A stretch of DNA of 48,081 nt, taken from Escherichia phage AN_ECEAS. The stretch lies in sequence record PP944860.1, one strand, 5' to 3'. Below, piece by piece: positions 4,863 to 46,607 of this stretch; the first letter of the stretch is position 1; each line of letters starts with the position of its first letter. Below the pieces are notes generated by a model, which worked only from the letters and a program-made list of their open reading frames with translations, ran no database searches and was not told where the DNA came from. Made by a program: the position numbers and the translations under genes.

Positions 4863-4868
4863 CCAAAT

Positions 4869-4890
4869 GGGCGCTTCGGCGTCCGTTTTT
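4869..4890 (+). terminator. rho-independent terminator
   Basis: GGGCGC-TTCG-GCGTCC stem-loop plus T5. Confidence 0.6.
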
Positions 4891-6103: not shown

Positions 6104-6501
6104 TGCAATATGAACTATCTTTAGCAGCAAGGAGGTTTGTAACTGATTTGGTTAAAACATTTCCAGTCAGGTATCCAATCTCCTACGAAAACGTAGCCTT
6201 TTCTCCACCAAGAAATGGTGGGATGTGGCTGAAATACGACTATACTGAGGCTGATACAGTAACCTATAGCTTGAGTCGAAAGTGCAAATACTATGTAGGC
6301 ATGGTTCAGTTATCTGTCTTTTTCTCCCCTGGTGATGGCGTTGATAAAGCGAGGAAACTAGCTAATCAATTGGCAGAATCAATGCTTGATGGTACAATGC
6401 TTGACACAGGCTACATTTATGAGGGCGGAGTAGTTCACCCGGTAGTGAAGTCAAAATCTGGCTGGTTTATTCCAGTTCGTTTCTATGTTCGTCTTGACTA
6501 A
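6103..6501 (+). CDS. putative tail terminator protein
   Basis: Translationally coupled ORF immediately upstream of the major tail gene. Confidence 0.3.
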   Translation: MQYELSLAARRFVTDLVKTFPVRYPISYENVAFSPPRNGGMWLKYDYTEADTVTYSLSRKCKYYVGMVQLSVFFSPGDGVDKARKLANQLAESMLDGTMLDTGYIYEGGVVHPVVKSKSGWFIPVRFYVRLD

Positions 6502-6512
6502 AAGGAAAATAT

Positions 6513-7177: not shown

Positions 7178-7200
7178 AACCCTCTTCGGAGGGTTTTTTA
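7178..7200 (+). terminator. rho-independent terminator after major tail gene
   Basis: CCCTC-TTCG-GAGGG stem-loop plus T6. Confidence 0.75.
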
Positions 7201-7879: not shown

Positions 7880-8193
7880 AACGCGCAGTATACTTACAAT
7901 ACCAGTCACCGCCAACGGATGCTGAACTCGAAGCTATCGGAATGAAACGTTCCGATTATGAAGGTGATGAGCCTGAAGAGTTATACTTCGATGAAACAAT
8001 GATGCAAAGCTGGGATGTGTACTGTGCCATGTCAACTCAATGGCGAGTAGGGGCTTGCGGTGCCACAGGCCTTGATTATAATTGCCTTCCATTCTTGTTC
8101 AAAGTCTATAAAATAGATGATGACGAAATGGTACTTAACGACATCAGAATACTTGAGGCTAAAGCCTTAGATATGATGAACGCCAAGAAATAG
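7565..8193 (+). CDS. tail assembly chaperone -1 frameshift fusion product (G-T-like); slip at 7870-7876
   Basis: The -1 frame is open from 7840 to 8193 and overlaps the 3' end of the G-like ORF; heptamer AAAAAAC lies in the overlap. Confidence 0.55.
7870..7876 (+). other. programmed -1 ribosomal frameshift slippery heptamer A_AAA_AAC
   Basis: X_XXY_YYZ heptamer in zero frame of 7565..7879, two codons before its stop; -1 frame continues to 8193. Confidence 0.6.
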
Positions 8194-8216
8194 CCATCCT
8201 TCGGGGTGGCTTTTTT
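8193..8216 (+). terminator. rho-independent terminator-like hairpin before tape-measure gene (possibly attenuating)
   Basis: GCCATCC-TTCG-GGGTGGC stem-loop plus T6. Confidence 0.6.
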
Positions 8217-8230
8217 ATTATGGAGACAAC

Positions 8231-11203
8231 ATGGCAACTAACGAAATTGCTGGTATCACGCTAGCCGTCGACGTAGCTCAGGTCGATAAGGGTACGCAAT
8301 CCTTACAGAAATTCAGGCAAGCAAACGAGCAAGCTGCAACAGGCATTAATAGCTTCGTCAACGCCGAACTTGTAGCCAAGACTCAAGCAAGGGACACTGC
8401 AAGGCAGCTTGAGGAGCAGCGCAAATCTTTCGCATCACTTCAGCAAGCCATAGACCCAACCGCTGCTAAATTCCTGAAGTTGCAGAAAGCAGCAACAGAT
8501 TTGGACAAAGCATTTGAATCCGGGATAGTTCCTGATGATGAATTCTTCAGGCTTGGCTCTGTTATTGAAACTCAAATCAATAAGCTAAACAGGTCTAAAG
8601 CCGCTCTTAGCGAAGAAGGCAGGGCTGCACTACAGGCATCAATAGATAAAGAGAAAGCAACAACAGCAGCGCAAAAGTTCATTCAATCTCTTGAGAACGA
8701 GGCGAATGCAGCAAGCCTGACAAGGACTGAACTTCTTCAGCTTAAGGCTGCTCAGCTAGGAGTTAGTGACCAGGCTGCACCGATTATCGACAGGATTGGA
8801 AAGGCTGCCGAGGCATCTGCGGTACAATTGCAGAAGCAAAGCTCCGCTTTTGTTAAGTCTGGGCTTAGTGCCGGTCAATACAAGCAAGCAATACGACAGC
8901 TACCAGCTCAGATTACAGATATCGGAACATCTCTTGCTGGCGGCATCCCAATCTGGCTCATTGCAATTCAGCAGGGCGGTCAGATTAAGGATAGTTTTGG
9001 TGGCATTGGCAATACAGCAAGGTTTGCATTAGCAGCCATTAATCCATTAACGGCAGTTGTTGGGACTTTGGGATTGGCTCTTGGTGCTCTTGGTGTTGCA
9101 GCTTATCAGGCCGACAAGAATACTCGCGGACTAGCATCAACGATAACACTGGTTGGCAACTCAACTATTACATCAACAGCGCAGATAAATCAGGTTGTTG
9201 ATGGAATCGAGAGCTCAACGCTAGCCACGCGCGGACTTATCCAGGAGATAGCTAACAGCCTGGTAGCAAACGGCAATCTAACGCTTACACAGATAGACAA
9301 AATAACTAAGGCAACCGCGCAGTGGGCAACTGTAACATCAACTGACTCGAAAACTATTCTTGGGTACTTTGACCAGATTACAAAGGACCCAATTCAAGGT
9401 CTGATTGCACTCGATAAGCAGTTCAACTTCCTTCAGTCAGGGCAGTTAAAATACATTGAGAATATCAGGAAGACCGCTGGAGAAACGGAGGCTGTAACAG
9501 CAGCTACAGAGCTATTCGCTAACGTTATGGAAAACAGGCTCGCGGACGTTGCGCTAAGCCTTAACCCGCTTGAAAGTGCATGGAATAGCTTCAGGAAGTT
9601 TGTAAGTGAGATCTGGGATGATATAAGCAAAAGGACGCTTGGGGCGCTTAACTTAATAACTGACGTTGTTGCGGGTACGATTGAGCAGATAAGGTCGTTA
9701 ATAAACTCCGGTGATATCCTATTAGGCGAGTTTGCAATAGCCGCAACCAAGACTCTTCAGTCAATCCCTGGACTTGGGGATTTAGGCAATGAGGCAATCG
9801 CTGAACAGCAAAAGATTGTTGATGCAGCCAAGAAGCAAAATGAGGAGTTAGCAAAAAGCATAGCTGAGCGAGATGCTAGAATCAGGAAGGGTGAGCTTGG
9901 TTATGTTGAGAGTAACAATAACACCAACCCGAGCGGCAACAAAACATCAACTGATAAGGAGTTCGGAGCAAGGAAGAAGGCGCTAGCTGATGAGCTTGAT
10001 ACAATAAAGAAAGCAAGGAGCGAGAGGAATAAGGCAGTAAAAGAAGAGAGGGATTTAACTTTATCTTATGAATCTGGTGTTCTTGCTCTTCAGGCTCAGT
10101 TAAAGGTTTTACAAGAGCACAAGACGATAAACGATGTAATAAGTAACGAACGAAAGCAACTATTCCAGGAGGAAGCAAAGTTTGCAATACTTGAGCAAAG
10201 AAAGGCCGATGGCAGCTTAACTAAGTCCCAAGCTAAGCTACTTGCTCAGAAGAATATCATTCTTGAACAGGCTAAACAGAAGGCTGAGCTTGGTGACCAG
10301 ATTGTGCTTCAGGAGAGGTCAAACAAGTTACTTGATGACAACCTCAAGAAGACTGTGCAGATTAAGAATGAGGCAAATAATGTTTCGCTTGCTGCTAATT
10401 TATCTGACAGGGAGAAGCAGAGGGCAAAAGAGCTTCAGGCTCTACAGTCCAATCAGGTAAACAAAGGTGGCTCTGTTGATGATACTGACTTTCAGGCTTT
10501 ACTCGAAGCTAGGCGTAATTTCTATGCTCAAGAGGATGCGCTACGTGAAAACTGGCTCGCTGGTGTGCAGTCATCCTTCGCAAATTGGGCAGAGAGCGCG
10601 ACAGATGCTTTCTCAATTGCTGGTGAATTAACAACTTCTGTCTTTACAGGAATTACGGAGCAGATTACTAGCCTTGTGACAACTGGCACGGCAGACTTCA
10701 GGAGTTTTACCGTTGAAATCCTGAAACAGATTGCGAAGATTGCTACTCAGCTTCTGATTGTGAAGGCGATTGAGTCAAGCTTAAGTAGCTTTGGTGGCAC
10801 TGGCGGCGCAATTGGTTCAATTGGTAGCGCTCTTGGCTTTGCTGGCGGCGGTTATACTGGTGATGGTGGGAAGTATCAACCTGCCGGAACTGTGCACCGC
10901 GGTGAGTTTGTATTCACAAAAGAAGCAACAAGCAGAATTGGCGTTAAGAATCTGTATAAGCTAATGCGAGGTTATGCAAATGGCGGTGCTGTTGGTGGGC
11001 CTTCTGGATATGCTAATGGTGGAGTTGTTGGCGGTACTAATGTCAGTGTTGGTGGTGTGACGGTTAACGTAAGCTCTGGATTTAGTAGCGGTAATGATGC
11101 TAAGGCGATAGAATCTGGAGTCAAGGTTATCGTTGCTGAGGAAATCAGCAAGTCATTCCAGCAGGGCGGCAGAGCCTTTGCTTATCTGAGGGGTTACAAC
11201 TAA
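8231..11203 (+). CDS. tail tape measure protein
   Basis: 990 aa, long helical/coiled-coil regions, Gly-rich C-terminal part, canonical position after chaperones. Confidence 0.8.
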   Translation: MATNEIAGITLAVDVAQVDKGTQSLQKFRQANEQAATGINSFVNAELVAKTQARDTARQLEEQRKSFASLQQAIDPTAAKFLKLQKAATDLDKAFESGIVPDDEFFRLGSVIETQINKLNRSKAALSEEGRAALQASIDKEKATTAAQKFIQSLENEANAASLTRTELLQLKAAQLGVSDQAAPIIDRIGKAAEASAVQLQKQSSAFVKSGLSAGQYKQAIRQLPAQITDIGTSLAGGIPIWLIAIQQGGQIKDSFGGIGNTARFALAAINPLTAVVGTLGLALGALGVAAYQADKNTRGLASTITLVGNSTITSTAQINQVVDGIESSTLATRGLIQEIANSLVANGNLTLTQIDKITKATAQWATVTSTDSKTILGYFDQITKDPIQGLIALDKQFNFLQSGQLKYIENIRKTAGETEAVTAATELFANVMENRLADVALSLNPLESAWNSFRKFVSEIWDDISKRTLGALNLITDVVAGTIEQIRSLINSGDILLGEFAIAATKTLQSIPGLGDLGNEAIAEQQKIVDAAKKQNEELAKSIAERDARIRKGELGYVESNNNTNPSGNKTSTDKEFGARKKALADELDTIKKARSERNKAVKEERDLTLSYESGVLALQAQLKVLQEHKTINDVISNERKQLFQEEAKFAILEQRKADGSLTKSQAKLLAQKNIILEQAKQKAELGDQIVLQERSNKLLDDNLKKTVQIKNEANNVSLAANLSDREKQRAKELQALQSNQVNKGGSVDDTDFQALLEARRNFYAQEDALRENWLAGVQSSFANWAESATDAFSIAGELTTSVFTGITEQITSLVTTGTADFRSFTVEILKQIAKIATQLLIVKAIESSLSSFGGTGGAIGSIGSALGFAGGGYTGDGGKYQPAGTVHRGEFVFTKEATSRIGVKNLYKLMRGYANGGAVGGPSGYANGGVVGGTNVSVGGVTVNVSSGFSSGNDAKAIESGVKVIVAEEISKSFQQGGRAFAYLRGYN

Positions 11204-17181: not shown

Positions 17182-17205
17182 GGCCCCTTTCGGGGCCTTT
17201 TCTTT
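17182..17205. terminator. terminator between convergent J-like gene and minus-strand gene
   Basis: GGCCCC-TTTC-GGGGCC stem-loop plus T-run. Confidence 0.7.
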
Positions 17206-21817: not shown

Positions 21818-21839
21818 AGCCCCTTTCGGGGCTTTTTTT
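21818..21839. terminator. bidirectional terminator between SSB and tailspike genes
   Basis: AGCCCC-TTTC-GGGGCT stem-loop flanked by A-run and T7. Confidence 0.7.
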
Positions 21840-24395: not shown

Positions 24396-24414
24396 ATAGC
24401 ACGAATTGCTAAAG
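24396..24414 (+). promoter_or_regulatory. dyad-motif element with no + strand gene downstream (lies in leader of the minus-strand tailspike gene)
   Basis: Perfect ATAGCACGAATTGCTAAAG; a degenerate reverse copy at about 24462-24480. Confidence 0.35.
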
Positions 24415-24438: not shown

Positions 24439-24459
24439 AAAAAAACCTCCCTTAGGAGG
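24439..24459 (-). terminator. rho-independent terminator (minus strand) after primase gene
   Basis: CCTCC-CTTA-GGAGG stem-loop with T7 on minus strand. Confidence 0.6.
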
Positions 24460-25383
24460 TTAGTCTAGCAATTCGCTTGCCTTGTATATTCGCTTTCTTA
24501 TGCCTGACTTGAAAAAATTATCATCATTTGGCATTACCACATCAAGATCGCGATCGTCAGCAACGGCGAGTAAATCAAAAGCGTGGCGAGTGCAAGCGAT
24601 GCGTAACTTGTATTTTCTAAGCGCGTAAGCAACCATTTCCATGTTGTAGCTGGAGTAGCAAACAATCACGCAGCGGTTGCCAGTAGCAAGATGAACGCGA
24701 ATACCATCAATCCAATTATCGACAAGATAAGCGTACTCATCATCTTTAAGGGAGCCAATAACAGACACTGACTGTCGAGTATAATCTTTTGCAGCATAGC
24801 TAACATCTCCTTCCTCATTGATAAACATTACATTGCACATTTCTTCTGATATGCCGTCACTATAAGCCATAAAGCACGGGACAGCATGGATTAATTCACC
24901 TGATTTTGTTCTACCAACATCAAATCCAAACTCGCTATAAATACCCTCGTATGTACTGAGTGGAGTTGATTCTACTCTTTCCGTCCTTTCCATTATCTCC
25001 AGGCATCTTTCGTGGTCAATCTGTGCTCCCATTTTGTAGAGCTGGGCTCTTGATGCTTGCTTGTTTGCCTTGTTAACAACTTCAACCGGGATGAGGTTCA
25101 GCCACTCACCTAGAGTGTCAATACATTCACTGAATGACTCACCCCGCATCTTCATGACCCAAATAATCCCATCACCTGACCCGCACTGGTTGCAGATAAT
25201 CCCACCGTCACCATCCTCACTAACCTTGTTTGTCCAGCGAGCGCGGTCAACTCCTCCACAATAAATACATGGCTTATGCTTTTTTGTCTGGAAGAATTTT
25301 GGGTCTGCGCCGCAAATGTTTATAAGCGCCTTATCCCACAGTCCGCGCATTCTTGGTAAAACTTCTTTCTTGTCGTAGTGCAT
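24460..25383 (-). CDS. putative DNA primase (zinc-ribbon plus TOPRIM-like region)
   Basis: CIYCGG...CNQCG zinc motif; acidic DxD cluster; divergent from helicase gene. Confidence 0.45.
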   Translation of the reverse strand: MHYDKKEVLPRMRGLWDKALINICGADPKFFQTKKHKPCIYCGGVDRARWTNKVSEDGDGGIICNQCGSGDGIIWVMKMRGESFSECIDTLGEWLNLIPVEVVNKANKQASRAQLYKMGAQIDHERCLEIMERTERVESTPLSTYEGIYSEFGFDVGRTKSGELIHAVPCFMAYSDGISEEMCNVMFINEEGDVSYAAKDYTRQSVSVIGSLKDDEYAYLVDNWIDGIRVHLATGNRCVIVCYSSYNMEMVAYALRKYKLRIACTRHAFDLLAVADDRDLDVVMPNDDNFFKSGIRKRIYKASELLD

Positions 25384-25441
25384 ATCAATCTACCTCTTAA
25401 CAAATAAAAAAGGATGTACCGATTATGGCACATCCAATCCT

Positions 25442-25915
25442 TTACTCTTTAGCTTTTCGTGCTGCTTCGTTAGCGGCCTTAATCTTGCGCCATGATCGAC
25501 ACTCTGGCTTGGTGGCTAGCTCTGCTTCAGTAACTACGCGAAGCATATGACGCTTCTTACATCGAAGTGTTAGCGGCTTACCGTTTCCGTCGAATTGCAG
25601 GTCTGGTCGGCAGAACGTAGCTCGAAATCCTTCCTTATTTCTCTTATACGCATTGTGAGCTTTCTGCGCTCCTCGAGCCGAAATCATCCCGCGATCAAAC
25701 CATTGCTCTACAGTCTGGTGAGATACGTTTAACTGCTTTGCGATGTTCGCCTTTGTTCCATAGAAATCAAGAACCATCTCCAGGCGAGCACGTAGCCCAG
25801 CCTTTACCTCATCTTTCAATACGTAGTAGCCTGACGGTCGTTTGCGTTGCTTCTTGTCTTGTGTGCGTACCGTTCCGTTATTGCCGTTAATAGTTCGTTT
25901 GTCAATTTCACACAT
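25442..25915 (-). CDS. HTH DNA-binding protein (candidate transcription regulator)
   Basis: Basic protein with HTH-like segment IAKQLNVSHQTVEQWF; its RBS region abuts dyad motif 25928-25946. Confidence 0.4.
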   Translation of the reverse strand: MCEIDKRTINGNNGTVRTQDKKQRKRPSGYYVLKDEVKAGLRARLEMVLDFYGTKANIAKQLNVSHQTVEQWFDRGMISARGAQKAHNAYKRNKEGFRATFCRPDLQFDGNGKPLTLRCKKRHMLRVVTEAELATKPECRSWRKIKAANEAARKAKE

Positions 25916-25927
25916 CTCATTACCTCA

Positions 25928-25946
25928 ATAGCACTTTTTGTTAAAC
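25928..25946 (+). promoter_or_regulatory. dyad-motif promoter element ATAGCACTTTTTGTTAAAC
   Basis: Upstream of helicase gene; TATTAT-like hexamer ~20 bp downstream; 12 bp from start of divergent HTH gene. Confidence 0.55.
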
Positions 25947-26011
25947 AATAGGTTCGATAATTGATATTATACAGCAATGCAACGAACTAACAAACTGTCA
26001 GGATACTTAAA

Positions 26012-34859: not shown

Positions 34860-35192
34860 TGCAAACAATTCGTCATCACTCATGTTGGCTATGTTCATCA
34901 TCTCACTGACGTAATCACTGGACCTACCTTCAAGGCTCATGAATTCAAACTGAAATGGTCGCTTAATTGAACCCTTACACCAGTACACTCCATTAACTCC
35001 ATCAAGATAACCAGCCGTAAGCATTCTCGCCATAAACTCCTTCGAGCAACTTGAGGCAAAATACCTTTCATCAACCCCGGCAGCCTTGGCCATCCTTGCG
35101 CAATCCTTGTGCTTATAGATGAATCTTGCCAGGTGCTGGCGGTTGAAGTTCTTGTATCCTTCGCAGAAATTATACAGGTCGAGCAGGTACAT
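34857..35192 (-). CDS. hypothetical protein
   Basis: Last gene of leftward operon; convergent terminator shared with spanin. Confidence 0.45.
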   Translation of the reverse strand: MYLLDLYNFCEGYKNFNRQHLARFIYKHKDCARMAKAAGVDERYFASSCSKEFMARMLTAGYLDGVNGVYWCKGSIKRPFQFEFMSLEGRSSDYVSEMMNIANMSDDELFA

Positions 35193-35195
35193 AAA

Positions 35196-36779
35196 TTACC
35201 CCAGCAATCGTGGATTAATGTAAATTTTATCACCAATCAGGCATGTGTAGTTTTTCTCATCAAGCATAGGAATCAAGTGGTCCTTAATGCGAGTCATAAT
35301 TCCAGCCTGAGCTTCAAAAGGTTTAACCTTGCGTGCAGCCTCATACAACGAGCGAACACCAACAACACCTTTACCATTCTTGCCCTGCTTAATCAGGATA
35401 TCAACCAGCTTGTTCATCTCGGCATTGTCACCAGCATGACCAGCAGCACTAGCTGATGACAAATACGTCTTGCTTAGCTCGTTGAAAATCATAACTGCCT
35501 CCTGCATTGTCTCCAGTTCAATCTCTCTGGACTTCTGCGGGCTAGAGCCAGTTTGTGAGGACCAGTTACGAATAACGTGAAGTACGGAAGCGATGCGGAT
35601 TGCTTGCTTATCAAACTTACCAAGAGCACCGCGCAACATTGTGTGAGAATACTTGCCACCATCACCAAGATGAGGCTCCATCTCCTGACGTGCTCGGTTA
35701 AGGTAACGCATTGATGATGCGCTTACTGTTAGCTTAACCTCTACTTCATTCATAATCTCATGAACAAGACGGAAGTAGTCCGCTTTCAGGCCGCCATCAA
35801 TAGCCTCGTATGTTGAATCACCATTAGCATCAACAAATACGCGGTCGCCAAGGAATGACTTTTCGCGCACCAGAAGGAAACGCTCAGATACACCAATACC
35901 ACGCGCACCAGCATTCATAATGGCATTGATTGTTTCATCCTGAGCAATTACGGAGATGCATCCCATAGCCACAAAGCTCATGTTATTTTCTGCGTTCGCA
36001 CGGGCAATTGACACATTACCTGCATCCCATGCTTTCAGCACGAGCTCGCTGTTCGTTTTCTTAGAGCCATTACCATATGTCATACCCAACAATGAGTTGA
36101 CGCTAGTTGCCTCATCCGAGATTACCGAGAAGTTACCCTGGCGGTTGTTGATTCGCGCAAGGCCTTCTGGTGTAGTATCGGAGACAGGGAATACGATATC
36201 GCACAGCTTCTCAAGTTTTTCCTCCAGGTCTTCTTTATCTTCAAACAATGAAGCCATTTCAGAAGGTGATTTCTCCTGCTTCATCTCTTTAGCCAGGGCG
36301 GACAGTTTAGCCATAATCTTTTTTCGATCACGTTTACGTACTTCATTCAACCGCTCAGTCTCAGCAATCATTGGCGCGATTGCCAGTGAGTTAATGGCTG
36401 ACTTACCAGTTGAAGGAGGCTGGCTCGTCACGACATAAAGAGATGTCGGCTGCTGGGTTCCGTGATACTCAACAGTGAAGCGCCCAAGCATTGCAGCGGA
36501 CACGCAGCCCAGAAAGTGCATATAAGCAGATGACTCAGGGAACTGAACTGAGCGAGCGATGTTGGCTGACAGCTTGCCAACAATATCAATGTCATTACCG
36601 AGTGAGATTACTGGATATTTGTCATTCCCAGCATCAATCTCGACAGGTGCTTTCCAGAATGATTGAGACTGGCGATAACCATTTGCATTAATTGCTACGC
36701 GAAGTGGTGGAAGGTTGTCTGTAGCTGCAATTGCCATAACTTGTTCAACAGATAGTTTATCTTCGTTGAAATCAAACAT
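35196..36779 (-). CDS. P-loop NTPase of unknown function
   Basis: 527 aa with Walker-A-like PPSTGKSA; own dyad-motif promoter. Confidence 0.45.
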   Translation of the reverse strand: MFDFNEDKLSVEQVMAIAATDNLPPLRVAINANGYRQSQSFWKAPVEIDAGNDKYPVISLGNDIDIVGKLSANIARSVQFPESSAYMHFLGCVSAAMLGRFTVEYHGTQQPTSLYVVTSQPPSTGKSAINSLAIAPMIAETERLNEVRKRDRKKIMAKLSALAKEMKQEKSPSEMASLFEDKEDLEEKLEKLCDIVFPVSDTTPEGLARINNRQGNFSVISDEATSVNSLLGMTYGNGSKKTNSELVLKAWDAGNVSIARANAENNMSFVAMGCISVIAQDETINAIMNAGARGIGVSERFLLVREKSFLGDRVFVDANGDSTYEAIDGGLKADYFRLVHEIMNEVEVKLTVSASSMRYLNRARQEMEPHLGDGGKYSHTMLRGALGKFDKQAIRIASVLHVIRNWSSQTGSSPQKSREIELETMQEAVMIFNELSKTYLSSASAAGHAGDNAEMNKLVDILIKQGKNGKGVVGVRSLYEAARKVKPFEAQAGIMTRIKDHLIPMLDEKNYTCLIGDKIYINPRLLG

Positions 36780-36834
36780 TACTTCTCTCCGTATTGTTTC
36801 TGAGCGGATATTATATCAACAGCCGCTTATAATA

Positions 36835-36853
36835 CATTATCAATTTGTGCTAT
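36835..36853 (-). promoter_or_regulatory. dyad-motif promoter element, variant ATAGCACAAATTGATAATG (minus strand)
   Basis: TATAAT follows 22 nt after the TTGATA arm; upstream of 35196..36779. Confidence 0.5.
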
Positions 36854-37347
36854 TTGCCATGATTTGGGTGATAACCCAGCCTCACCTCTGCAACAATTCT
36901 TGCCTCACATGCAGAGATAAAGTCATCAAAAAAACCAAGGTGAACAGTCTTTCCACCACTCTGTATTGAGGCCCTCCACTTACCTGTTCTTTTGTATATG
37001 GCGACTCCAGTTACACCACTTTTATTATCAAACCTTAATGATGAGTTCATTGAATTCACTTTTTGGGTAACAAGCCTTAGATTTTCAATCCTATTGTCAC
37101 GCCTATTTCCATTTATGTGGTCTATGAATAGACAATCAGGTATGTCTCCATTAGTCATCTCCCATATAATTCTGTGAGCCATTGTGTAGCCGATTCCCTT
37201 ATTGCTAACCCTAACGTACCCGCTTGTTGTAACCTCCGTGTTAACTGGCTTATTTGCATATTTTGTATTCCAAGATTGAGTTCTATCTGACCTCTCCTTT
37301 CTGTACAAAACTGAATCTTTTATATAAAAAATTTCATTCCAGTTCAT
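36850..37347 (-). CDS. HNH homing endonuclease
   Basis: Motif IDHINGNRRDNRIENLRLV plus C-terminal AP2-like region; ATG 37347 overlaps upstream stop. Confidence 0.65.
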   Translation of the reverse strand: MNWNEIFYIKDSVLYRKERSDRTQSWNTKYANKPVNTEVTTSGYVRVSNKGIGYTMAHRIIWEMTNGDIPDCLFIDHINGNRRDNRIENLRLVTQKVNSMNSSLRFDNKSGVTGVAIYKRTGKWRASIQSGGKTVHLGFFDDFISACEARIVAEVRLGYHPNHGK

Positions 37348-37730
37348 GAGTATTTTGCTTCCATTTTGTATGTGCCACACAATGTTTTAAAGCCAACGTC
37401 ATCCCTGTACAGCTGCCATGCAAAGCCACCCTCATCATAGATGTACCCCGCTTGCTGGCCCAGTCCAGAGTGAAGGTTTACGATATATCTCTTGCCTTCT
37501 TTGAAGTCTTTCTTAACTCCTGACTTATGGTTAACATTAGTGCAGTAAAGCGTCTTCGTCTTAATGTATTTCCCACGCTCTTCAAGATTAATCCACTTGC
37601 CATTTTTCTTGATTTGCTCAAATTCAACTTCCTCAGCGACACCGTTAACCCACTGGTGAATCTTTTTAACGCGAGCTTTAAACAGTTTGTTATCGTTGCT
37701 AATCCAATTTTTGGTTATCGTAGTAGTCAT
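37344..37730 (-). CDS. hypothetical protein
   Basis: ATG 37730 preceded by RBS GAAGAGAG and a complete dyad-motif promoter. Confidence 0.45.
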   Translation of the reverse strand: MTTTITKNWISNDNKLFKARVKKIHQWVNGVAEEVEFEQIKKNGKWINLEERGKYIKTKTLYCTNVNHKSGVKKDFKEGKRYIVNLHSGLGQQAGYIYDEGGFAWQLYRDDVGFKTLCGTYKMEAKYS

Positions 37731-37780
37731 TATTTTACTCTCTTCGTTGTTTCATTTCGATGAAATAACTATACAGGAAA

Positions 37781-37794
37781 AGCCCCGAAGGGCT
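37781..37794 (-). terminator. terminator-like hairpin embedded in a promoter spacer (minus strand)
   Basis: AGCCC-CGAA-GGGCT stem; T4 on minus strand; sits between dyad motif and -10 hexamer. Confidence 0.4.
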
Positions 37795-37811
37795 TTAGCA
37801 ATTCGTGCTAT
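37793..37811 (-). promoter_or_regulatory. dyad-motif promoter element (minus strand) with terminator hairpin in its spacer
   Basis: Minus strand reads motif, GC hairpin plus T-run, TATAGT, CATCGAAATG, RBS, ATG 37730. Confidence 0.6.
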
Positions 37812-37956
37812 TTCGTGCCTTCTCAATCGCCTTCAGCATAATCTCGTGAGACTCAAGCAAGTCCTCGTTGAACCAGTCTCCGCAAGGCCACCCCTTCCCA
37901 CTGTAAGCGGCAACAACGCTCAAGTCGTAATAGTTAATGTCAGATGGTAGAAGCAT
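37795..37956 (-). CDS. hypothetical small protein (53 aa)
   Basis: Below track cutoff; RBS AAGGTGA; ends ...NSTNC* inside the downstream promoter motif. Confidence 0.3.
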   Translation of the reverse strand: MLLPSDINYYDLSVVAAYSGKGWPCGDWFNEDLLESHEIMLKAIEKARNSTNC

Positions 37957-38159
37957 TATTCAGTCACCTTAAAAGTTGCAATTCCTGGGATGACTACGTA
38001 ATCAAGGCATTTAAGCGCCTGGAACGTATCGTGGTTCTTGTGCGGACGATCTCCGGTAATAAGGCACATGTCATTTTTAAACTCAGTAGCGTTGTATTCA
38101 GAACCCTTATTGAAGGCATCGTTAAAGTCTTTAATTACGTTCGTGCAAATTAGCTTCAT
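37956..38159 (-). CDS. hypothetical small protein
   Basis: ATG 38159 with RBS AAGGAA; antisense + ORFs rejected. Confidence 0.35.
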   Translation of the reverse strand: MKLICTNVIKDFNDAFNKGSEYNATEFKNDMCLITGDRPHKNHDTFQALKCLDYVVIPGIATFKVTE

Positions 38160-38170
38160 TATCTCATTCC

Positions 38171-38356
38171 TTACCAGGGTAAACATTCGTCGCAGCCGAG
38201 GCCATCGCAGCACAGATAATAATCTTCTGACTGGAATTGCTTAGCCAGGTCGATATCGATGCGTCCGCGTAAAACCATATCAGTATAGTCACTGTTCAAT
38301 CCAATCAGCGCACATTCCTGCTTTAATTGCTCAAATGCTTCGTCTTTAAGTTTCAT
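38171..38356 (-). CDS. hypothetical small Cys-rich protein
   Basis: RBS AGGAGAGGG and dyad-motif promoter 38410-38428; C-terminal CCDGLGCDEC. Confidence 0.45.
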   Translation of the reverse strand: MKLKDEAFEQLKQECALIGLNSDYTDMVLRGRIDIDLAKQFQSEDYYLCCDGLGCDECLPW

Positions 38357-38409
38357 ATCCCTCTCCTCGTTGTTGATGGATTCATTATGGCCTCGTCGCC
38401 AGTTTTTGT

Positions 38410-38428
38410 CATTAGCAAAAAGTGCTAT
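38410..38428 (-). promoter_or_regulatory. dyad-motif promoter element (minus strand), ATAGCACTTTTTGCTAATG
   Basis: Upstream of 38171..38356; iteron block immediately upstream. Confidence 0.55.
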
Positions 38429-38443
38429 TCGTTGGATTTATCT

Positions 38444-38544
38444 ATTGTTGCAGCTATTGCAATGATTATCATGATTATTGCACATATAGCAATATTGCAT
38501 GGAATGCAATGATGTTTTTGATTGTTGCAGAATTTGCAATGATT
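38444..38544. repeat. iteron-like array: ATTGTTGCAG-N3-TTGCAATGATT twice (38444-38467, 38521-38544) plus palindrome GCAATATTGC and ATGCAATGATG between
   Basis: Direct 24-bp repeats ~77 bp apart and TGCAAT-containing dyads. Confidence 0.6.
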
Positions 38545-38664
38545 GATGTGGGGTGAATGAATAGTGGATGAACTACCATACAAGTTGATTTTGATTCTTG
38601 CTGAGCCAATTTGGATATACACGTTATCGAAGTTATGGTGTGTATATGAGGTGCGCTTCCGAAG

Positions 38665-38975
38665 AATCATACACGCCTACCACGCGAGATTACGCAATGG
38701 TTACATAATAATATCTATATATATCAACCTTTTACTATATTATTATTATTATTATATATATGTATGTATATGGTGTAGATTGGTCGTATGGATGGGTCGA
38801 TAGTTTTTCTATGAAAACTACTAATTTTATCTATATAGATACATATGCATACCCCCGGCGAATCCGCGTAAAATCTTACACAGGGTAATTACACCAGCTA
38901 TAGCTGGGCTGAGAGGTCAAAAAGCGTAACCAATGCAGATATAAACACAACATAACACTTGATAACGCGTATATT
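38665..38975. repeat. control region B: paralogue of region A
   Basis: Shares AT-rich (ATT)n block, palindrome CCAGCTATAGCTGG (38894-38907), AAAGCGTAACCAATG and AACGCGTATA boxes. Confidence 0.7.
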
Positions 38976-39028
38976 CATGATACCATGGTTTCATCTTAAC
39001 GAAGAGCAACCAATCAGGAGTAACGAAT

Positions 39029-39550
39029 ATGTCAGAACATAAAGAAGCAGTAAGTTTGGGTGAAATCATTCGATACATGGCGAGTCAGGCGCTCAAGTCA
39101 GAAGACAAAGTGTGCACAGTCCCTGTGACCATGATTGCTCGTCAATACTTCGGCATGAGTCGTGAGACGTTCGTATCGCTAAGTGGTGAGGAGGTTCTAC
39201 CTGGTGGTGAATACCACATGCCAAAACTAAAAGCGTCATACGTTTCAAACACCGTAAGCCGAATGCCTGAGATTAAGGCGGCTGACGTGCGCTCAAGGTT
39301 CTCACTTAGTTTTACCGACTTTGAGGGCGAGAGTGAGACATACTGCGCATCACTTAGCCTGGTTCCTGGCGCTGTAAAATCCGGCTCAAGAAGCAAAGCA
39401 GAGCAAGAGAAGGAGGCGGCTACCATTGAAAGGTTCAAGGCTCGATTGTTGAAACTATCACCAAGCGTCGCTGGTCTTGAAGGTGATGAACTTAAGGGTG
39501 CAGTATCAATGATTAACGCATACCAGGAAATGATTAAGGAGACTAAATAG
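39029..39550 (+). CDS. hypothetical early protein (first gene right of control region B)
   Basis: ATG 39029 with RBS AGGAG. Confidence 0.5.
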   Translation: MSEHKEAVSLGEIIRYMASQALKSEDKVCTVPVTMIARQYFGMSRETFVSLSGEEVLPGGEYHMPKLKASYVSNTVSRMPEIKAADVRSRFSLSFTDFEGESETYCASLSLVPGAVKSGSRSKAEQEKEAATIERFKARLLKLSPSVAGLEGDELKGAVSMINAYQEMIKETK

Positions 39551-39651
39551 TAGGTATCCTAGTAGACTACCATACCACTTTCGGTACGGTGAGGAGGAGG
39601 TTGAGGCGGCTATGGAGTTTTATCGGAAAGCTAAGTCACTCCTGAATGGAA

Positions 39652-39670
39652 ATAGCACTTTTTGCCTAAC
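39652..39670 (+). promoter_or_regulatory. dyad-motif promoter element ATAGCACTTTTTGCCTAAC
   Basis: CATAAT-like hexamer and CATCGAAACG follow; upstream of 39733. Confidence 0.55.
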
Positions 39671-39732
39671 GCAATAATGCCATGGATGGCATAATTATCT
39701 CATCGAAACGAGAGGCACAAAGGAAAACGAAA

Positions 39733-39921
39733 ATGGCTAAGCGCATCACTAAAGAACTTAAAGTCCTGAATAAAGAAAACGTAATCACCATCCTGACAAT
39801 GTTCGGATACAACGAAGAGTCAGCGATTGCAAAGGTTGAGGCTGGTTACGATGTTGCAGTACGTAGTATGCCGGAAGCAACCTCAAAAGGTATCGCCGAC
39901 TTCCTGGCTACCTGCTACTGA
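39733..39921 (+). CDS. hypothetical protein
   Basis: ATG 39733 with RBS AAAGGAAAA; dyad-motif promoter 39652-39670. Confidence 0.45.
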   Translation: MAKRITKELKVLNKENVITILTMFGYNEESAIAKVEAGYDVAVRSMPEATSKGIADFLATCY

Positions 39922-39976
39922 GTTATCTTACAAGGCATCTCGCGGGGTGCCTCAATAAGACAACTGGAGAAACAGC

Positions 39977-40162
39977 ATGAAAACTAAAATGGTACATAAG
40001 AGCGAAGTTAAGATTGGCGATACTGTTATCCATCGTGGCTATCTTAGAACTGTAAATGCCAACACTTTTAGTAAGGATGAGTTTATGGGACTACTTCTTT
40101 GGGGCGACTCCTACCGGCTTGGGCAGGAGATGGTTGAAGTTATAATTGATGTTAAGTTTTGA
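39977..40162 (+). CDS. hypothetical protein
   Basis: RBS CTGGAGAAA. Confidence 0.45.
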   Translation: MKTKMVHKSEVKIGDTVIHRGYLRTVNANTFSKDEFMGLLLWGDSYRLGQEMVEVIIDVKF

Positions 40163-40181
40163 ATAGCACAAATTGTTAAAC
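40163..40181 (+). promoter_or_regulatory. dyad-motif promoter element ATAGCACAAATTGTTAAAC
   Basis: TATAGT ~20 bp downstream; upstream of 40239. Confidence 0.55.
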
Positions 40182-40238
40182 CTTCCGCAAGGCCATTTGA
40201 TATAGTGGCCTTATTAAAGCAAAGCAAGAGAGGGTGGG

Positions 40239-40469
40239 ATGGATAGGAACAAATATGAAAGAGAGATTACTGGGCTTAATGGCGAGCGGGCTGTTGTTGA
40301 TGTGTATCGCACGCTATCAGCGTTCAACGTTACAGACCCAGCATGTCAGCATGCAATCAAAAAGCTGCTCTGCATGGGTTTACGAGGTCACAAGGATGTT
40401 ATCACAGACCTTGATGACGCAATAGACTCACTGAACAAGATGAAAACTTACCTGGAACAAACGAAATGA
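40239..40469 (+). CDS. hypothetical protein
   Basis: RBS AGAGGGTGGG; dyad-motif promoter 40163-40181. Confidence 0.45.
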   Translation: MDRNKYEREITGLNGERAVVDVYRTLSAFNVTDPACQHAIKKLLCMGLRGHKDVITDLDDAIDSLNKMKTYLEQTK

Positions 40470-40699
40470 TTACAATTAACCTGTCAGAGAAAGATGCAGC
40501 AATCCTTAAATCGATCATAATGAAGCCGATGTACTCTACGCTCACCTTTGAGCAGATGCGTGTCGTAAAAGAGACTAGCGCGCAAATCAACAATCAGCAG
40601 TTCGACGTATCAGACTTCGAGTCATCTCGCCAGTACGAGCAGCTAAGCGTGCAGAATGCTGGCTACCTCACTAACTGGGATAAGGCGACAAAGAGATGA
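40466..40699 (+). CDS. hypothetical protein
   Basis: ATGA-coupled ORF. Confidence 0.4.
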   Translation: MITINLSEKDAAILKSIIMKPMYSTLTFEQMRVVKETSAQINNQQFDVSDFESSRQYEQLSVQNAGYLTNWDKATKR

Positions 40700-40842
40700 T
40701 TTACATTCACACTTACTATACAGGAAAGTTTAACAGCGTTAAGCACGTGCGTGTGCATGAAACATACGAATCGGCACATAGTCAGCTTAGAGTTCTTGGT
40801 GGAACAATTACAATGTGTGAAATTGTTGAAGAATACAGATAG
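40696..40842 (+). CDS. hypothetical small protein (48 aa)
   Basis: ATGA-coupled; stop TAG lies inside promoter motif 40839-40857. Confidence 0.3.
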   Translation: MIYIHTYYTGKFNSVKHVRVHETYESAHSQLRVLGGTITMCEIVEEYR

Positions 40843-40857
40843 CACGAATTGCTAAAC
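40839..40857 (+). promoter_or_regulatory. dyad-motif promoter element ATAGCACGAATTGCTAAAC
   Basis: Hairpin in spacer, CATAAT-like hexamer, CATCGACAACG; upstream of 40915. Confidence 0.55.
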
Positions 40858-40914
40858 AATCGCCGGAGTAATCCGGCATAATTACTACATCGACAACGAA
40901 CGAGTAAATGAAGA

Positions 40915-41127
40915 ATGAAAATTAAAATTATCGACGTGAACCACATACCAGAAGAAGGCGTTCTGACACTTGAAGAATGCGGGTTTAAGGTTGGTGACGT
41001 ATTAGAAGTAACCGGTCGGTTCGGGTGTGGTAGCTTATCAGCTCGAGAGATTCGTGATACTGAGTTAGTATCAATAGGACAGATGGTTAGTTTTGAAGAA
41101 GGCGAGTACAAGGTGGTCGAAGAATGA
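40915..41127 (+). CDS. hypothetical protein
   Basis: Dyad-motif promoter upstream. Confidence 0.45.
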   Translation: MKIKIIDVNHIPEEGVLTLEECGFKVGDVLEVTGRFGCGSLSAREIRDTELVSIGQMVSFEEGEYKVVEE

Positions 41128-41303
41128 AATTCCAGAAAAGTAACCCTAAGCTCCAGGCTAACAACTTCGATGGTTACACAACATTTATCATCGCCCAGGC
41201 TTTCGGTTTGCATGATGAACCTAAGGTTCATACTATCCACTTAAATGAAGAGCAAGCTCGAGAACTGGCTTTCGAGATTCTTGATCAATTGAATAAAATT
41301 TAA
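41124..41303 (+). CDS. hypothetical small protein (59 aa)
   Basis: ATGA-coupled; below track cutoff. Confidence 0.35.
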   Translation: MKFQKSNPKLQANNFDGYTTFIIAQAFGLHDEPKVHTIHLNEEQARELAFEILDQLNKI

Positions 41304-41313
41304 GGTTTATAAA

Positions 41314-41736
41314 ATGAAATTAAGCAAATCTCAAAGGGAAGAGTTGAAGGGCAAGTTCGGTGGTCGCTGCGCTTATTGTGGGTGTGAACTACCTGAGAAA
41401 GGCTGGCATGCTGACCATGTTGAACCGGTGCTACGTAAATCTGAGGTATGCATGAAGGCAGCGGAGAAAGGAACTTTCAAGCTGAAGGCGACAGGTGAGT
41501 TTAATCGACCACAAGCTGATCGAATGGAAAACCTTTACCCTGCATGTGCTCCATGCAACCTCATGAAAACTTGCTATTCCCTTGAAATGTTCAGGGAACA
41601 GGTGTCTCTTCAAGTCGCTCGCGGGCGTAAGAGCAGCATGAATTTTCGCACGGCAGAGCGGTTCGGCCTCATCTCCATAGTGGAGGATCCAGTTGTTTTC
41701 TGGTTTGAGAAGTTTGAGCAAATTAACAAAATCTGA
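41314..41736 (+). CDS. HNH nuclease (zinc-binding, McrA-like)
   Basis: CAYCG...HADHVEP...NLYPACAPCN motif set. Confidence 0.6.
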   Translation: MKLSKSQREELKGKFGGRCAYCGCELPEKGWHADHVEPVLRKSEVCMKAAEKGTFKLKATGEFNRPQADRMENLYPACAPCNLMKTCYSLEMFREQVSLQVARGRKSSMNFRTAERFGLISIVEDPVVFWFEKFEQINKI

Positions 41737-41746
41737 GGATAGAGAA

Positions 41747-41881
41747 ATGCATACTGGGTTAATGATGGATGAAGTTCTGGTTGAAGCATTGCCATGGTTA
41801 CTCTGGTCATTGGGCTTCATGATTATTTACATGATTTCAGCAGCCGTAGATGACGCTAAAAGCGATTCTAACGAACTATAA
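41747..41881 (+). CDS. small membrane protein
   Basis: ATG 41747 with RBS GAGGATAGAGAA; TM segment LPWLLWSLGFMIIYMISAAV. Confidence 0.35.
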   Translation: MHTGLMMDEVLVEALPWLLWSLGFMIIYMISAAVDDAKSDSNEL

Positions 41882-41899
41882 TTTAAGTGAGGTGATTGC

Positions 41900-42061
41900 A
41901 TGATTAAGATCGTATACATTGGTCAGGATGATTATATGGCGCGCTTAAAGCATGGCGACGTATTCTATGCAGAGCCTAGCGAAGATGGCAATGGGTACTT
42001 CATTAAAAACAAGCACGATGAGGAGCTTTACATAGCAAACCACGAGGCTCTTGTTTACTAA
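41900..42061 (+). CDS. hypothetical small protein (53 aa)
   Basis: RBS AGTGAGGTGA; below track cutoff. Confidence 0.3.
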   Translation: MIKIVYIGQDDYMARLKHGDVFYAEPSEDGNGYFIKNKHDEELYIANHEALVY

Positions 42062-42201
42062 TGGATAACTACGAAACACCAAGCCAGTGGGCTAAACGGA
42101 TGATGGATGAGGCTAAGACTGGCGAGGTTGCCATGATGTACTTCGAGCTGATGAATCTATGGAAGGAGCGTGAAGATAAAATAAACAGCACGAATAGCTA
42201 A
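42061..42201 (+). CDS. hypothetical small protein (46 aa)
   Basis: Coupled ORF ending ...NSTNS* within promoter motif 42185-42203. Confidence 0.3.
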   Translation: MDNYETPSQWAKRMMDEAKTGEVAMMYFELMNLWKEREDKINSTNS

Positions 42202-42203
42202 AC
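42185..42203 (+). promoter_or_regulatory. dyad-motif promoter element, variant ACAGCACGAATAGCTAAAC
   Basis: TATAAT 20 bp downstream; upstream of 42258. Confidence 0.5.
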
Positions 42204-42257
42204 ACCAAAGGCATGGATGCCATATAATTTATATATCAAACAGCGAGAGGTTAGAAA

Positions 42258-42494
42258 ATGTTCGGATTAGAAGACGCATACTTTAACGCAGTCAAGCGAC
42301 AGGCTGACAAGCTGAATGAAGAGTACGGCAAGCTGGGTGTAAAGAAGAAAGATGATAAGGTTGTGGCGGCACTGATTACCCAGGTTTGGGGGCCAGTTTC
42401 GACATTAATTGCTCGTGATAAGTTTGTGTGGATTGCTGGCTATCGAAAAGGTCGAGTGGGTCATGATGAGAATGGGAATAGCCTTTATGAGTAA
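42258..42494 (+). CDS. hypothetical protein
   Basis: RBS GAGAGG; dyad-motif promoter 42185-42203. Confidence 0.45.
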   Translation: MFGLEDAYFNAVKRQADKLNEEYGKLGVKKKDDKVVAALITQVWGPVSTLIARDKFVWIAGYRKGRVGHDENGNSLYE

Positions 42495-42576
42495 AGATTT
42501 TCAGGAATTTTTAGAAAGCATAGCGATAGGTATCTTTATTGGTTTTGTGTTCATGGCGGTCCTGACGGTGGTATGA
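42487..42576 (+). CDS. possible 29-aa hydrophobic peptide
   Basis: Overlaps upstream stop; single TM-like segment; speculative. Confidence 0.2.
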   Translation: MSKDFQEFLESIAIGIFIGFVFMAVLTVV

Positions 42577-42606
42577 TGAGTGTACTAATCTAGTGGTGGT
42601 CTAAGT

Positions 42607-42708
42607 ATGAATGATATTATTATTGATTTAGTGTTAACTTTGATTGCTGTTGTTCTTGCTATTGCTACAGGTGCAGGGATGCTTTTACTTGTAATGAGAC
42701 TTTCTTAA
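42607..42708 (+). CDS. possible 33-aa hydrophobic peptide
   Basis: Single TM-like segment; speculative. Confidence 0.2.
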   Translation: MNDIIIDLVLTLIAVVLAIATGAGMLLLVMRLS

Positions 42709-42738
42709 TGGATGTTGATAAGAACAGGAGCCATATGT

Positions 42739-42930
42739 ATGAATGAAAACGACAATAACCACAAGCATCGCTACGTTTACGTGTTCACATCAAATATTAA
42801 CGATTTTGACATTAAAGCGCTAAACGACAAGTACCATGAGTCAACAAAACAAAGTCTATTTGTTGGTGAAAGCTGTTCATTCTACGAGTGCAAAGATTGT
42901 GGCAAGATGCTTATAACTGAGGAGTTTTGA
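42739..42930 (+). CDS. hypothetical protein with C-terminal Cys cluster
   Basis: ATG 42739 with RBS AGGAG. Confidence 0.4.
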   Translation: MNENDNNHKHRYVYVFTSNINDFDIKALNDKYHESTKQSLFVGESCSFYECKDCGKMLITEEF

Positions 42931-43127
42931 TGAATAAAATTATTAAGAAAGGCGATGCTATCAAGTGCACAAAGGCAGTATCGGATGACTTCATGGATGG
43001 ATGCGATTACCAGGTCGAAAAGGTATCGAAGACTGGCCACGTATTCTGCTACAGCGATAATGGCGAATTGGTGAGCATTGACTACCCGTATGACCAGAAT
43101 TATGGGAAATTCGAAAGAGTAAGTTGA
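42927..43127 (+). CDS. hypothetical protein
   Basis: ATGA-coupled ORF. Confidence 0.4.
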   Translation: MMNKIIKKGDAIKCTKAVSDDFMDGCDYQVEKVSKTGHVFCYSDNGELVSIDYPYDQNYGKFERVS

Positions 43128-43315: not shown

Positions 43316-43391
43316 GTTCTGCTGGCGTAACAGGATAACGCAAAGACCTCCTAAGTCTTAGTTACTGGTTCGAGTCCAGTGCGGAACACCA
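43316..43391 (+). tRNA. tRNA-Arg (anticodon CCU), CCA encoded
   Basis: Hand-folded cloverleaf: 7-bp acceptor stem, U8, D-arm GCGT/ACGC, anticodon stem AAGAC/GTCTT with loop CTCCTAA, T-arm ACTGG-TTCGAGT-CCAGT, discriminator A. Confidence 0.8.
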
Positions 43392-46553: not shown

Positions 46554-46607
46554 ACGCGCCGCCAAGGATGGCTTATAGTTACTTCACGCAAACGAGAGGA
46601 GTAAAAA

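Follow-up and report, generated by a model that had tools for sequence, protein, structure and literature searches.

Stem-loops between box and start site in the predicted promoter cassettes of a T1-like Escherichia phage, with a marginal terminator at one of them

The closest described counterpart of the element considered here is the set of 21-nucleotide (nt) direct repeats DR1-DR18 in TLS, which have the consensus aaATAGCACnnnTTGnTAAAA and are said to occur in T1, Rtp and Rogue1 as well (PMC11447400). Their function is left open in that paper (stoperator, enhancer-binding site or UP element), and its Table S1 places terminators directly past DR12 (T62) and DR10 (T57), uncommented. Our subject is one such repeat in 48,081 nt of DNA from Escherichia phage AN_ECEAS (PP944860.1; this whole stretch is referred to as the window), together with the hairpin and the -10 element that follow it at 37768-37811 (the focal site). 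The repeats of the window agree with those of TLS in consensus, in orientation with transcription and in distance to the start codon (~76 nt, and 81 nt at the focal site), whereas a -10 element fixed at 19 nt, embedded stem-loops and overlap with terminators, all found here, are absent from the TLS paper. The best explanation of the focal site, to which we give a probability of about 0.55, is an activator-dependent promoter cassette whose stem acts in read-through RNA, by leaky termination or pausing, by 3' protection, or by both.

According to the T1 record (NC_005833), rho-independent terminators lie at 38973-39001, 39998-40024 and 41980-42007, that is, inside cassette spacers past the motifs at 38953, 39976 and 41956. 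This is the same arrangement as an earlier sequence-only reading described for the focal site, where a GC hairpin plus T-run between motif and -10 element was held both to terminate the upstream transcript and to form the promoter. The T1 sites (the 'transcripton' idea, cited in PMC11447400), however, are annotated as plain terminators with no promoter link, and under d'Aubenton-Carafa-type scoring of hairpin and tail (score d, threshold d > 0) only that past 41956 is positive (9.0), those past 39976 and 38953 being negative. Literature searches on the motif string, on Drexlerviridae transcript mapping and on overlapping terminator/promoter elements returned nothing beyond PMC11447400 and PMC6737242. 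The repeat and its adjoining terminators are already public, and compact genomes are known to bring promoter and terminator signals into overlap. Not found in the searchable literature were the fixed box-N19-(-10) architecture, the box-embedded stops and the systematic, covarying, strand-biased stem-loops.

Class II activator-dependent sigma-70 promoters, such as those with CRP or FNR sites at -41.5 or lambda cI at PRM, have the geometry of the cassettes, with a dyad at about -42 in place of a -35 element and a fixed distance to a good -10. For the cassettes, however, the activator is a candidate only, and the box is unrelated to CRP/FNR sites; a structured spacer is not a known feature of class II promoters. 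T4 MotA/AsiA middle promoters combine a MotA box near -30 with a sigma-70 -10 element. There too a phage-specific box replaces the -35 beside a host-type -10, and TTGCTAAA loosely resembles TGCTTTA, but the cassette box is palindromic and centred at -42, ~12 base pairs (bp) further upstream. In N4 hairpin promoters the stem is fixed at 5-7 bp with a loop of 3 nt, and a virion RNA polymerase of ~3500 amino acids (aa) reads them. They share with the cassettes a stem-loop within the promoter region, yet the cassette stems occur in at least three registers with 4-12-nt loops, and the largest open reading frame (ORF) of the window has 1141 aa. As for canonical intrinsic terminators, in which a U-rich tract of ~7-9 nt follows the stem, the focal site resembles them in its GC-rich stem-loop at a stop codon followed by U residues, and differs in that its U-run is short (four U's, then CC), its score is just below threshold and it overlaps a promoter.

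The focal site lies inside a block of leftward (minus-strand) genes. The surrounding 6.5 kb (36500-43000) are 100% identical to Escherichia phage ES (OR466728.1; Drexlerviridae, subfamily Braunvirinae, T1/Rtp-like), and parts of them match many other T1-like phages at 73-88% identity. That a hairpin lies in the spacer between motif and TATAGT, as had been proposed, is borne out when the minus strand is read directly; the interval given earlier for the spacer, 37793-37811, is however the motif, and the description otherwise holds. The parts are as follows.

37811 to 37793, minus strand: 19-nt upstream motif of the predicted promoter, ATAGCACGAATTGCTAAAG, with the palindrome TAGCA-N5-TGCTA of the Drexlerviridae direct repeat; position weight matrix (PWM) score 31.5
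37796 to 37779, minus strand: RNA stem-loop AAAGCCC-UUCG-GGGCUUU, 7 bp (four G-C pairs), cUUCGg loop, about -9.7 kcal/mol
37792 to 37774, minus strand: 19-nt spacer CCCTTCGGGGCTTTTCCTG between motif and -10, containing the 3' part of the stem and a short U-run (UUUU CC UG)
37773 to 37768, minus strand: -10 element TATAGT, exactly 19 nt from the motif, followed by TATTT and then CATCGAAAT
37753-37762, minus strand: conserved start region CATCGAAATG (family consensus CATCGAAAC in 93 aligned cassettes)
37795-37956, minus strand: upstream ORF of 53 aa, 87-91% identical in seven related genomes
37344-37730, minus strand: downstream ORF of 128 aa, served by the cassette; its ATG stands 63 nt past the motif end and is preceded by a Shine-Dalgarno-like GAGAG

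The stem takes in the final 4 nt of the motif along with the greater part of the spacer, and is followed directly on its 3' side by T and then CCTGTAT. The motif is encoded by the final six codons of the 53-aa ORF, whose stop codon TAA (37797-37795) belongs at once to the motif and to the 5' arm of the stem. It has the same orientation as the flanking genes, with 81 nt from its start at 37811 to the ATG at 37730, and as gaaATAGCACGAATTGCTAAAG it fits the published repeat consensus and has the top PWM score. From its position 7 nt past the -10 hexamer, the A at 37761 is the predicted transcription start. A sigma-70 scan listed 36 sites, none of them the focal cassette; on that ground, and because it lies 22 nt from the -10, TTGCTA in the box was ruled out as a -35 element.

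Regarding the motif family, the 17-mer core has 14 copies in the window at no more than three mismatches (0.07 expected), and a PWM scan finds 21 sites scoring above 15, scores below 8 being in the chance range. A -10-like hexamer stands 18-20 nt past the motif at 19 of these 21 sites, compared with 9.6% of random positions (P ~8e-18), and at exactly 19 nt in 15 (P ~1e-19), which points to promoter cassettes: the layout follows from these statistics and the function is predicted from them. The start-site sequence CATCGAAAC is conserved 5-6 nt past the hexamer. If the start is taken as 7 nt past the hexamer, the box TAGCA-N5-TGCTA extends from about -50 to -32 around a centre at ~-42, and no -35 hexamer is present at 17 +/- 1 nt from the -10; the sigma-70 scan did pick up two other cassettes, in which weak -35-like hexamers (TAAACA) stand at 42199 and 40853. 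Judged by this geometry, a phage activator probably binds the motif at 37793-37811, whose centre is near -42, and the focal promoter is probably activator-dependent.

In 10 of the 19 cassettes the gene upstream has its stop codon within the motif, and in three more the stop adjoins it; the next start codon follows 53-66 nt past the motif in most cassettes (range 12-85 nt). Each junction is thus compressed into ~80 nt. The motif itself carries two built-in stops, each used in five cassettes, so that coding sequence and promoter box overlap systematically.

29564, 36835, 38410, 44450, 46535: cassettes with the stop within the motif, TAG at motif positions 2-4
20605, 29818, 33386, 37793, 42185: cassettes with the stop within the motif, TAA at motif positions 15-17

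Hairpins in these cassettes exceed chance. Dinucleotide shuffles served as the null for minimum free energy (MFE), and the comparison set comprises 115 distinct cassettes from seven genomes (the window, Rtp, T1, A110b, T145P1, Msk and 12397V). For the 19 cassettes of the window the summed spacer MFE is -60.2 kcal/mol, compared with -37.1 +/- 6.4 in shuffles (p ~0.001); when the folded region runs from the end of the motif to 12 nt past the -10, the total is -151.4, which none of 1000 shuffles reached (-87.3 +/- 8.5). On the sense strand of all 115 cassettes the sum is -1106 kcal/mol, against -562 +/- 21 (z = -25). Structure is lost in chimeras, where the spacer of one cassette is followed by a -10 region taken from a different one, with z of -15 overall (window -5.5, Rtp -7.4, T1 -10.2); the complementarity is therefore specific to each cassette.

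Covariation supports the same conclusion. In an ungapped alignment of the 93 cassettes with 19-nt spacers, the in-spacer helix (columns 26-29/34-37) has 67.7% of its cells paired, compared with 49.3 +/- 2.2% after shuffling (0/500) and 35-44% in slid controls, and its covariation score is 0.552 against 0.262. The helix flanking the -10 (columns 27-32/45-50) has 46.2% of its cells paired, against 38.9 +/- 1.4% (0/500 shuffles). Taken together, the MFE excess, the chimeras and the covariation indicate that the spacer dyads are more than shuffled sequence yields, a comparison on which the sequence-only reading had staked its claim, and they point to selection on the hairpins. A further register, 32-38/47-53 (GATGGGG with CCCCATC), is complementary in the consensus only and does not covary; it was set aside. 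The tetramer GATG is semi-conserved 3 nt upstream of the -10 (spacer positions 13-16, alignment columns 32-35), being exact in 20 of 94 cassettes and replaced in others by the related GTTG, GGTG or GACG. Its complement, CATC, is conserved at the start site, which makes the consensus cassette itself palindromic around the -10 (GATGGGGTATAGTTACCCCATC).

Sorted by dominant hairpin, the 115 cassettes comprise 67 with the -10 element enclosed by the stem, 15 with the stem inside the spacer, 5 of intermediate form and 28 whose hairpin is weak or absent. Spacer dyads are real, yet they are a minority form of a broader feature. The short GC dyads that had been noted in three other spacers of the window are present, and all are listed here with an example of the commonest class.

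40188-40211, plus strand: arms AAGGCC / GGCCTT around the -10 TATAGT, in the cassette at 40163-40181; -12.9 kcal/mol, z = -3.6
40861-40876, plus strand: in-spacer hairpin GCCGGAGTAATCCGGC of the cassette at 40839-40857; -10.7 kcal/mol, no U-run, d = -37
42204-42222: spacer with the short GC dyad GGCATGGATGCC
39671-39690: spacer with the short GC dyad GCCATGGATGGC

A module identical to 40188-40211 is present in T1 at 3535. The hairpin at 40861-40876 has no U-run, and it is therefore not a sense-strand terminator.

The strand and position of the stems suggest where they act. Sense folds of the 115 cassettes are stronger than antisense folds (-1106 vs -916 kcal/mol), though shuffles favour the antisense strand (-562 vs -627), and the fold profile places the end of the cassette stems at or just ahead of the predicted start site. 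Transcripts begun at a cassette therefore lack the 5' arm; at the focal site, a transcript begun ~7 nt past TATAGT has no stem, and the stem can therefore form only in RNA arriving from upstream. In cassettes with no co-directional upstream gene the stems are weak, with a mean of -5.3 kcal/mol against -9.9 in the others (p = 0.005; second test p = 0.003), a comparison made with crude ORF calling and with orthologous cassettes that are not independent. At the one junction where a canonical terminator (7180-7193) already stands just upstream of the motif at 7204, no cassette stem is found in any genome. Strand bias, stem ends and dependence on the upstream gene point to a role in RNA reading through from upstream. 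Counts of G.U versus A.C in fixed registers were tried as proof of selection at the RNA level and dropped, since their excess is mostly column composition; the whole-fold strand comparison is used instead.

18474 (minus strand) and 25928 (plus strand) in the window, the cassettes at the right ends of Rtp and T1, and orthologues of these: examples of weak-stemmed cassettes that no co-directional gene precedes

The same data bear on the possibility that the inverted repeats act on the promoter as DNA; a stem-loop of the non-template strand, for example, might present or flank the -10 and aid melting or the activator. The arms flank the -10 in 67 of the 115 cassettes, the hexamer thus being in the loop, and the favoured strand is the non-template one. 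Cassettes that are first in their unit, however, retain box and -10 while their stems are weak or absent, and the stem position varies over three registers, in the spacer or around the -10. The focal stem excludes the -10, and short arms with 4-12-nt loops are in general poor candidates for extrusion from duplex DNA. We regard a DNA-level role as improbable.

Recognition or processing of the stem-loops in read-through RNA by an RNase or an RNA-binding protein, with no termination, would fit the sense-strand bias and the covariation without U-runs. It would also fit CANGGATG, whose place immediately ahead of the -10 is fixed in the 13 of 94 cassettes that contain it. Hairpins of 4 bp with the form NNCA-NGGA-TGNN, ending 1 nt before the -10, make up a sub-family that is found in the window at 39677-39688, 42210-42221 and 46563-46574 and in many cassettes of the related genomes L002, L005, L006 and L007, and its outer pairs covary (GCCA/TGGC, GGCA/TGCC, CGCA/TGCG and TCCA/TGGA). 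Both CANGGATG and this form resemble high-affinity CsrA sites, such as RUACARGGAUGU obtained by systematic evolution of ligands by exponential enrichment, with GGA in a hairpin loop. The focal hairpin with its UUCG loop, however, is outside the NNCA-NGGA-UGNN sub-family, and the semi-conserved GATG occurs there in all classes and may be a DNA-level promoter element. Processing in place of termination seems to us very improbable.

According to terminator scoring, 16 sites in the window have d > 0 (14.5-54.2), all with 5-8 consecutive T's, compared with 0-2 sites in shuffled sequence. The best score of the focal hairpin is -2.2, below all 16, and it is obtained only for a trimmed GCCC/GGGC stem (GCCCUUCGGGGC, -6.3 kcal/mol, tail UUUUCCUGUAUAGUU); the full stem has d = -37. 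Its U-tract UUUUCCUGUAUAGUU consists of four U's followed by CC and has a T-score of 3.5 with the 4-bp trimmed stem and 1.5 past the full stem, and a separate terminator scan of the window did not call the stem. Of the proposal that one element both terminates and promotes, the promoter part stands and the terminator part is marginal. By these criteria efficient termination at 37776-37811 is unlikely, and the stem is at most a leaky terminator or a pause or 3'-end stem. As a general account of hairpins in cassette spacers termination is not supported, since only 7 of the 115 cassettes have d > 0 (9 have d > -10) and the commonest stem encloses the -10. The focal hairpin is ruled out as a plus-strand (antisense) terminator, with a tail (TTTAGCAATT) well below zero by hand estimate; the lack of a plus-strand gene converging on the site also disfavours that reading.

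A strict version, in which the focal hairpin and T-run form an efficient intrinsic terminator and the same DNA doubles as promoter spacer, is nevertheless to be weighed. The GC stem, the stable cUUCGg loop and the UUUU with the U-rich -10 and discriminator (UAUAGUUAUUU) speak for it, as do the terminators annotated in three T1 spacers and the better U-runs of relatives (L011 TTTTATTG, SU57 TTTTGTTG, the 12397V cassette at 19710 and the T145P1 cassette at 42323, d = 18). The U-run differs from copy to copy (TTTTCCTG, TTTCAATG, TTATGCTG, TTTTATTG and TTTTGTTG), however, and is degraded in T145P1 (TTTCAATG) and L010 (TTATGCTG). Three of the only four U's at the focal site pair with the AAA of the motif, and the upstream stop codon is inside the stem, so that a terminating ribosome would delay folding. 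With the scores given above, we hold efficient termination by the focal element to be unlikely.

True terminator-in-promoter elements do exist in this phage family, as exceptions. Two of the 16 window terminators are linked to a motif.

25412-25435, minus strand: strong intrinsic terminator GGATGTGCC-ATAATC-GGTACATCC followed by U6AUUU, d = 34.5, after the pir-like gene and before the primase gene
24446-24459, minus strand: canonical terminator CCTCCTAAGGGAGG followed by T7, d = 25.7, directly past the primase stop codon

The first of them carries in its loop the -10 element CATAAT of the cassette with the motif 25447-25465 and is the clearest case of a terminator within a promoter in the window; the arrangement recurs in Rtp and in TLS (DR10 plus T57). 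The strongest example of the idea is thus a site that the sequence-only reading did not mention. That reading had ascribed the focal arrangement to a degenerate motif at 24462-24480 as well. The hairpin there is a strong terminator, that of the primase gene, but no convincing promoter accompanies it: the relic has the 10-mer CGAATTGCTA in common with the consensus, its PWM score is below 8 and there is no -10 at 18-20 nt, by which a second promoter is ruled out.

In the late (structural) region, nearly every intergenic gap has a strong terminator and no cassette, the early and middle regions using cassettes instead. Many of the late-region canonical terminators have TTCG or TTTCG loops.

1958-1971, 4868-4885, 7180-7193, 8193-8210, 17182-17197 and 21819-21832: canonical terminators of the late region

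As for the activator, Laganenka et al. (PMC6737242) report for T1 that the promoters of dam and hol are activated by Orf23 (Pir), that the same protein represses recE and its own promoter, and that Orf65 activates its own promoter and represses Ppir. The fragments Pdam and Porf65 drive green fluorescent protein, Porf65 reportedly independently of Pir (PMC6737242). When the motif is mapped onto these fragments, Pdam and Porf65 each contain a full cassette and PrecE and Phol have no box, while in Ppir the box lies downstream of the -10 in reverse orientation, an operator position. The Pir homologue of the window is the ORF at 25442-25915 (minus strand), 54% identical to T1 Orf23; weak matches to Cro-like helix-turn-helix (HTH) domains were obtained in a Pfam scan that took in three window proteins. 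On these grounds Pir, a conserved HTH protein, is the leading candidate for the box-binding activator. T1 Orf65 was rejected for this part: the box is universal, yet homologues of Orf65 are missing from the window and from five other Braunvirinae genomes. The GAA, TTT and AAA subtypes of the box may have different readers.

Several observations touch the boxes of this region. In the divergent pir/helicase region of T1 (36417-36581; window counterpart 25916-26011), the -10 TATTAT of the helicase cassette overlaps the pir-strand TATAAT back to back, which puts the box downstream of the pir -10, in keeping with the negative autoregulation published for pir. The hol promoter fragment of T1 (42728-42893) contains a half-site (AATAGCA) but no full box; after the half-site comes a strong hairpin of terminator type (GGCTGGCATGATTTACATGCTGGCC, then T5). 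In the window, a perfect-scoring motif copy at 24396-24414 (plus strand, PWM 31.5) runs against the minus-strand genes on either side, and no -10 follows it. Read on the minus strand, this copy starts 3 nt past a -10-like TACAAT (24423-24418), ahead of a likely tail-fibre start (ATGGCAATTTATGAC, near 24370), and its position is thus operator-like. T1 has an orphan motif copy at 34902-34920.

Conservation of the focal element was followed in orthologous cassettes past the same 53-aa ORF and in an IMG/VR search for further orthologues, which gave six loci, three of them duplicating genomes already in the set. The stem is intact in the orthologues of T145P1 and SU57 and, altogether, in at least six sources (the window, T145P1, SU57, L010, L011 and L012).

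Several findings weigh against a stem that acts in read-through RNA at this site. Preservation of the focal element across orthologues is not seen: Msk and A110b each have an uncompensated stem substitution, Msk also having a 1-nt loop insertion, Rtp and 12397V carry a different hairpin of 4-5 bp (CGCAAGGATGCG), and EC3a has none. Taken alone, the focal hairpin is not significant (z = -1.4; p = 0.04 over 23 nt and 0.095 over 40 nt), and the cassettes include orthologues, so that the shuffle-based p-values overstate independence. In three IMG/VR contigs the motif and hairpin module stands behind different upstream genes and before the same downstream gene family; the module therefore travels with the promoter, not with the upstream message. 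Most cassette stems have no U-run, and Pir as the activator is called into question by Porf65, strongly boxed yet reportedly Pir-independent, and by Phol, Pir-activated with no box. The searched literature holds no RNA 5'- or 3'-end data for any Drexlerviridae phage.

Part of this is also what a focal hairpin with no function would produce, one that is a passenger of a duplicated promoter module whose spacer is free to vary. The low single-site z, the uncompensated mutations, the different spacers in Rtp, 12397V and EC3a, and the recurrence of the module elsewhere as a unit are in its favour, and travel of the module with the downstream gene would equally suit a DNA-level role. The family-wide excess, the covariation and the context dependence, however, make neutrality unlikely as a general rule, and the stem is intact in the six or more sources named above; absence of function is in our judgement a poor prospect.

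The preferred reading, a stem acting in read-through RNA, can be laid out as follows. The focal site would be one of 19 gene-junction cassettes, each with a box near -42, no -35, a 19-nt spacer, a sigma-70 -10 and a start within CATCGAAAC. Upstream genes end inside or against the box, and a 3'-end signal must therefore sit in the unconstrained positions, namely the spacer and -6 to -1; in most internal cassettes the stem-loop between box and start site would serve the 3' end of the upstream message. Leftward transcripts that start at the 38410-38428 cassette, or at early promoters that may lie beyond it, would cross three small ORFs, and once the ribosome is released at TAA (37797-37795) the cUUCGg stem could fold. 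A minority of polymerases might then terminate in the UUUUCCUGU tract directly past it. In the remaining transcripts the stem may persist after processing as a 3'-proximal structure that protects the message of the three small ORFs. The 128-aa gene, and possibly the next ORF (36850-37380), would be expressed chiefly from their own start near 37761 once the activator is present, and the same design with a long U-run, as at 25412-25435, would give a strong terminator. Within this account the layout, the statistics and the covariation are observed, and we infer the start site, the identity of the activator, the efficiency of termination and the stabilising role.

Two further observations concern the records used. 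A search of Rfam gave no family match except a tRNA; a single tRNA-Arg (anticodon CCT) lies at 43316-43391 (plus strand), and other T1-like phages are likewise reported with one. The deposited annotation of ES (OR466728.1) is unreliable, with implausible names on very small ORFs (for example at 6183-6422, 6478-6663 and 8401-8562), such as a 'capsid maturation protease' of 79 aa, an 'endolysin' of 53 aa and 'DNA helicase' on ORFs of 61-67 aa.

For annotators, automatic terminator calls inside T1 and TLS cassettes overlap predicted promoters. For synthetic biology, a unit of ~80 bp that combines stop codon, 3' stem-loop, inducible promoter and 5' untranslated region would be a very compact part. 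T1-like phages are common, are held in therapy collections and are notorious laboratory contaminants, and their transcription programme is almost unmapped; the conserved 21-nt repeats were still labelled function-unknown in 2024. The cassettes offer a testable model for the separation and switching of ~20 gene modules per genome. A rule for the whole family, in which activator-dependent promoters carry a covarying stem-loop in sequence-free positions that is present in read-through RNA only, is a tentative extension, which we consider possible while leaning against it. If it holds, read-through RNA and cassette-started RNA would meet different fates (attenuation, 3'-end protection, processing or a reader of GGA loops such as CsrA), and each cassette would be a compact insulator between gene modules. 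The long-unexplained direct repeats would then be the upstream half of the main promoter class of the Drexlerviridae.

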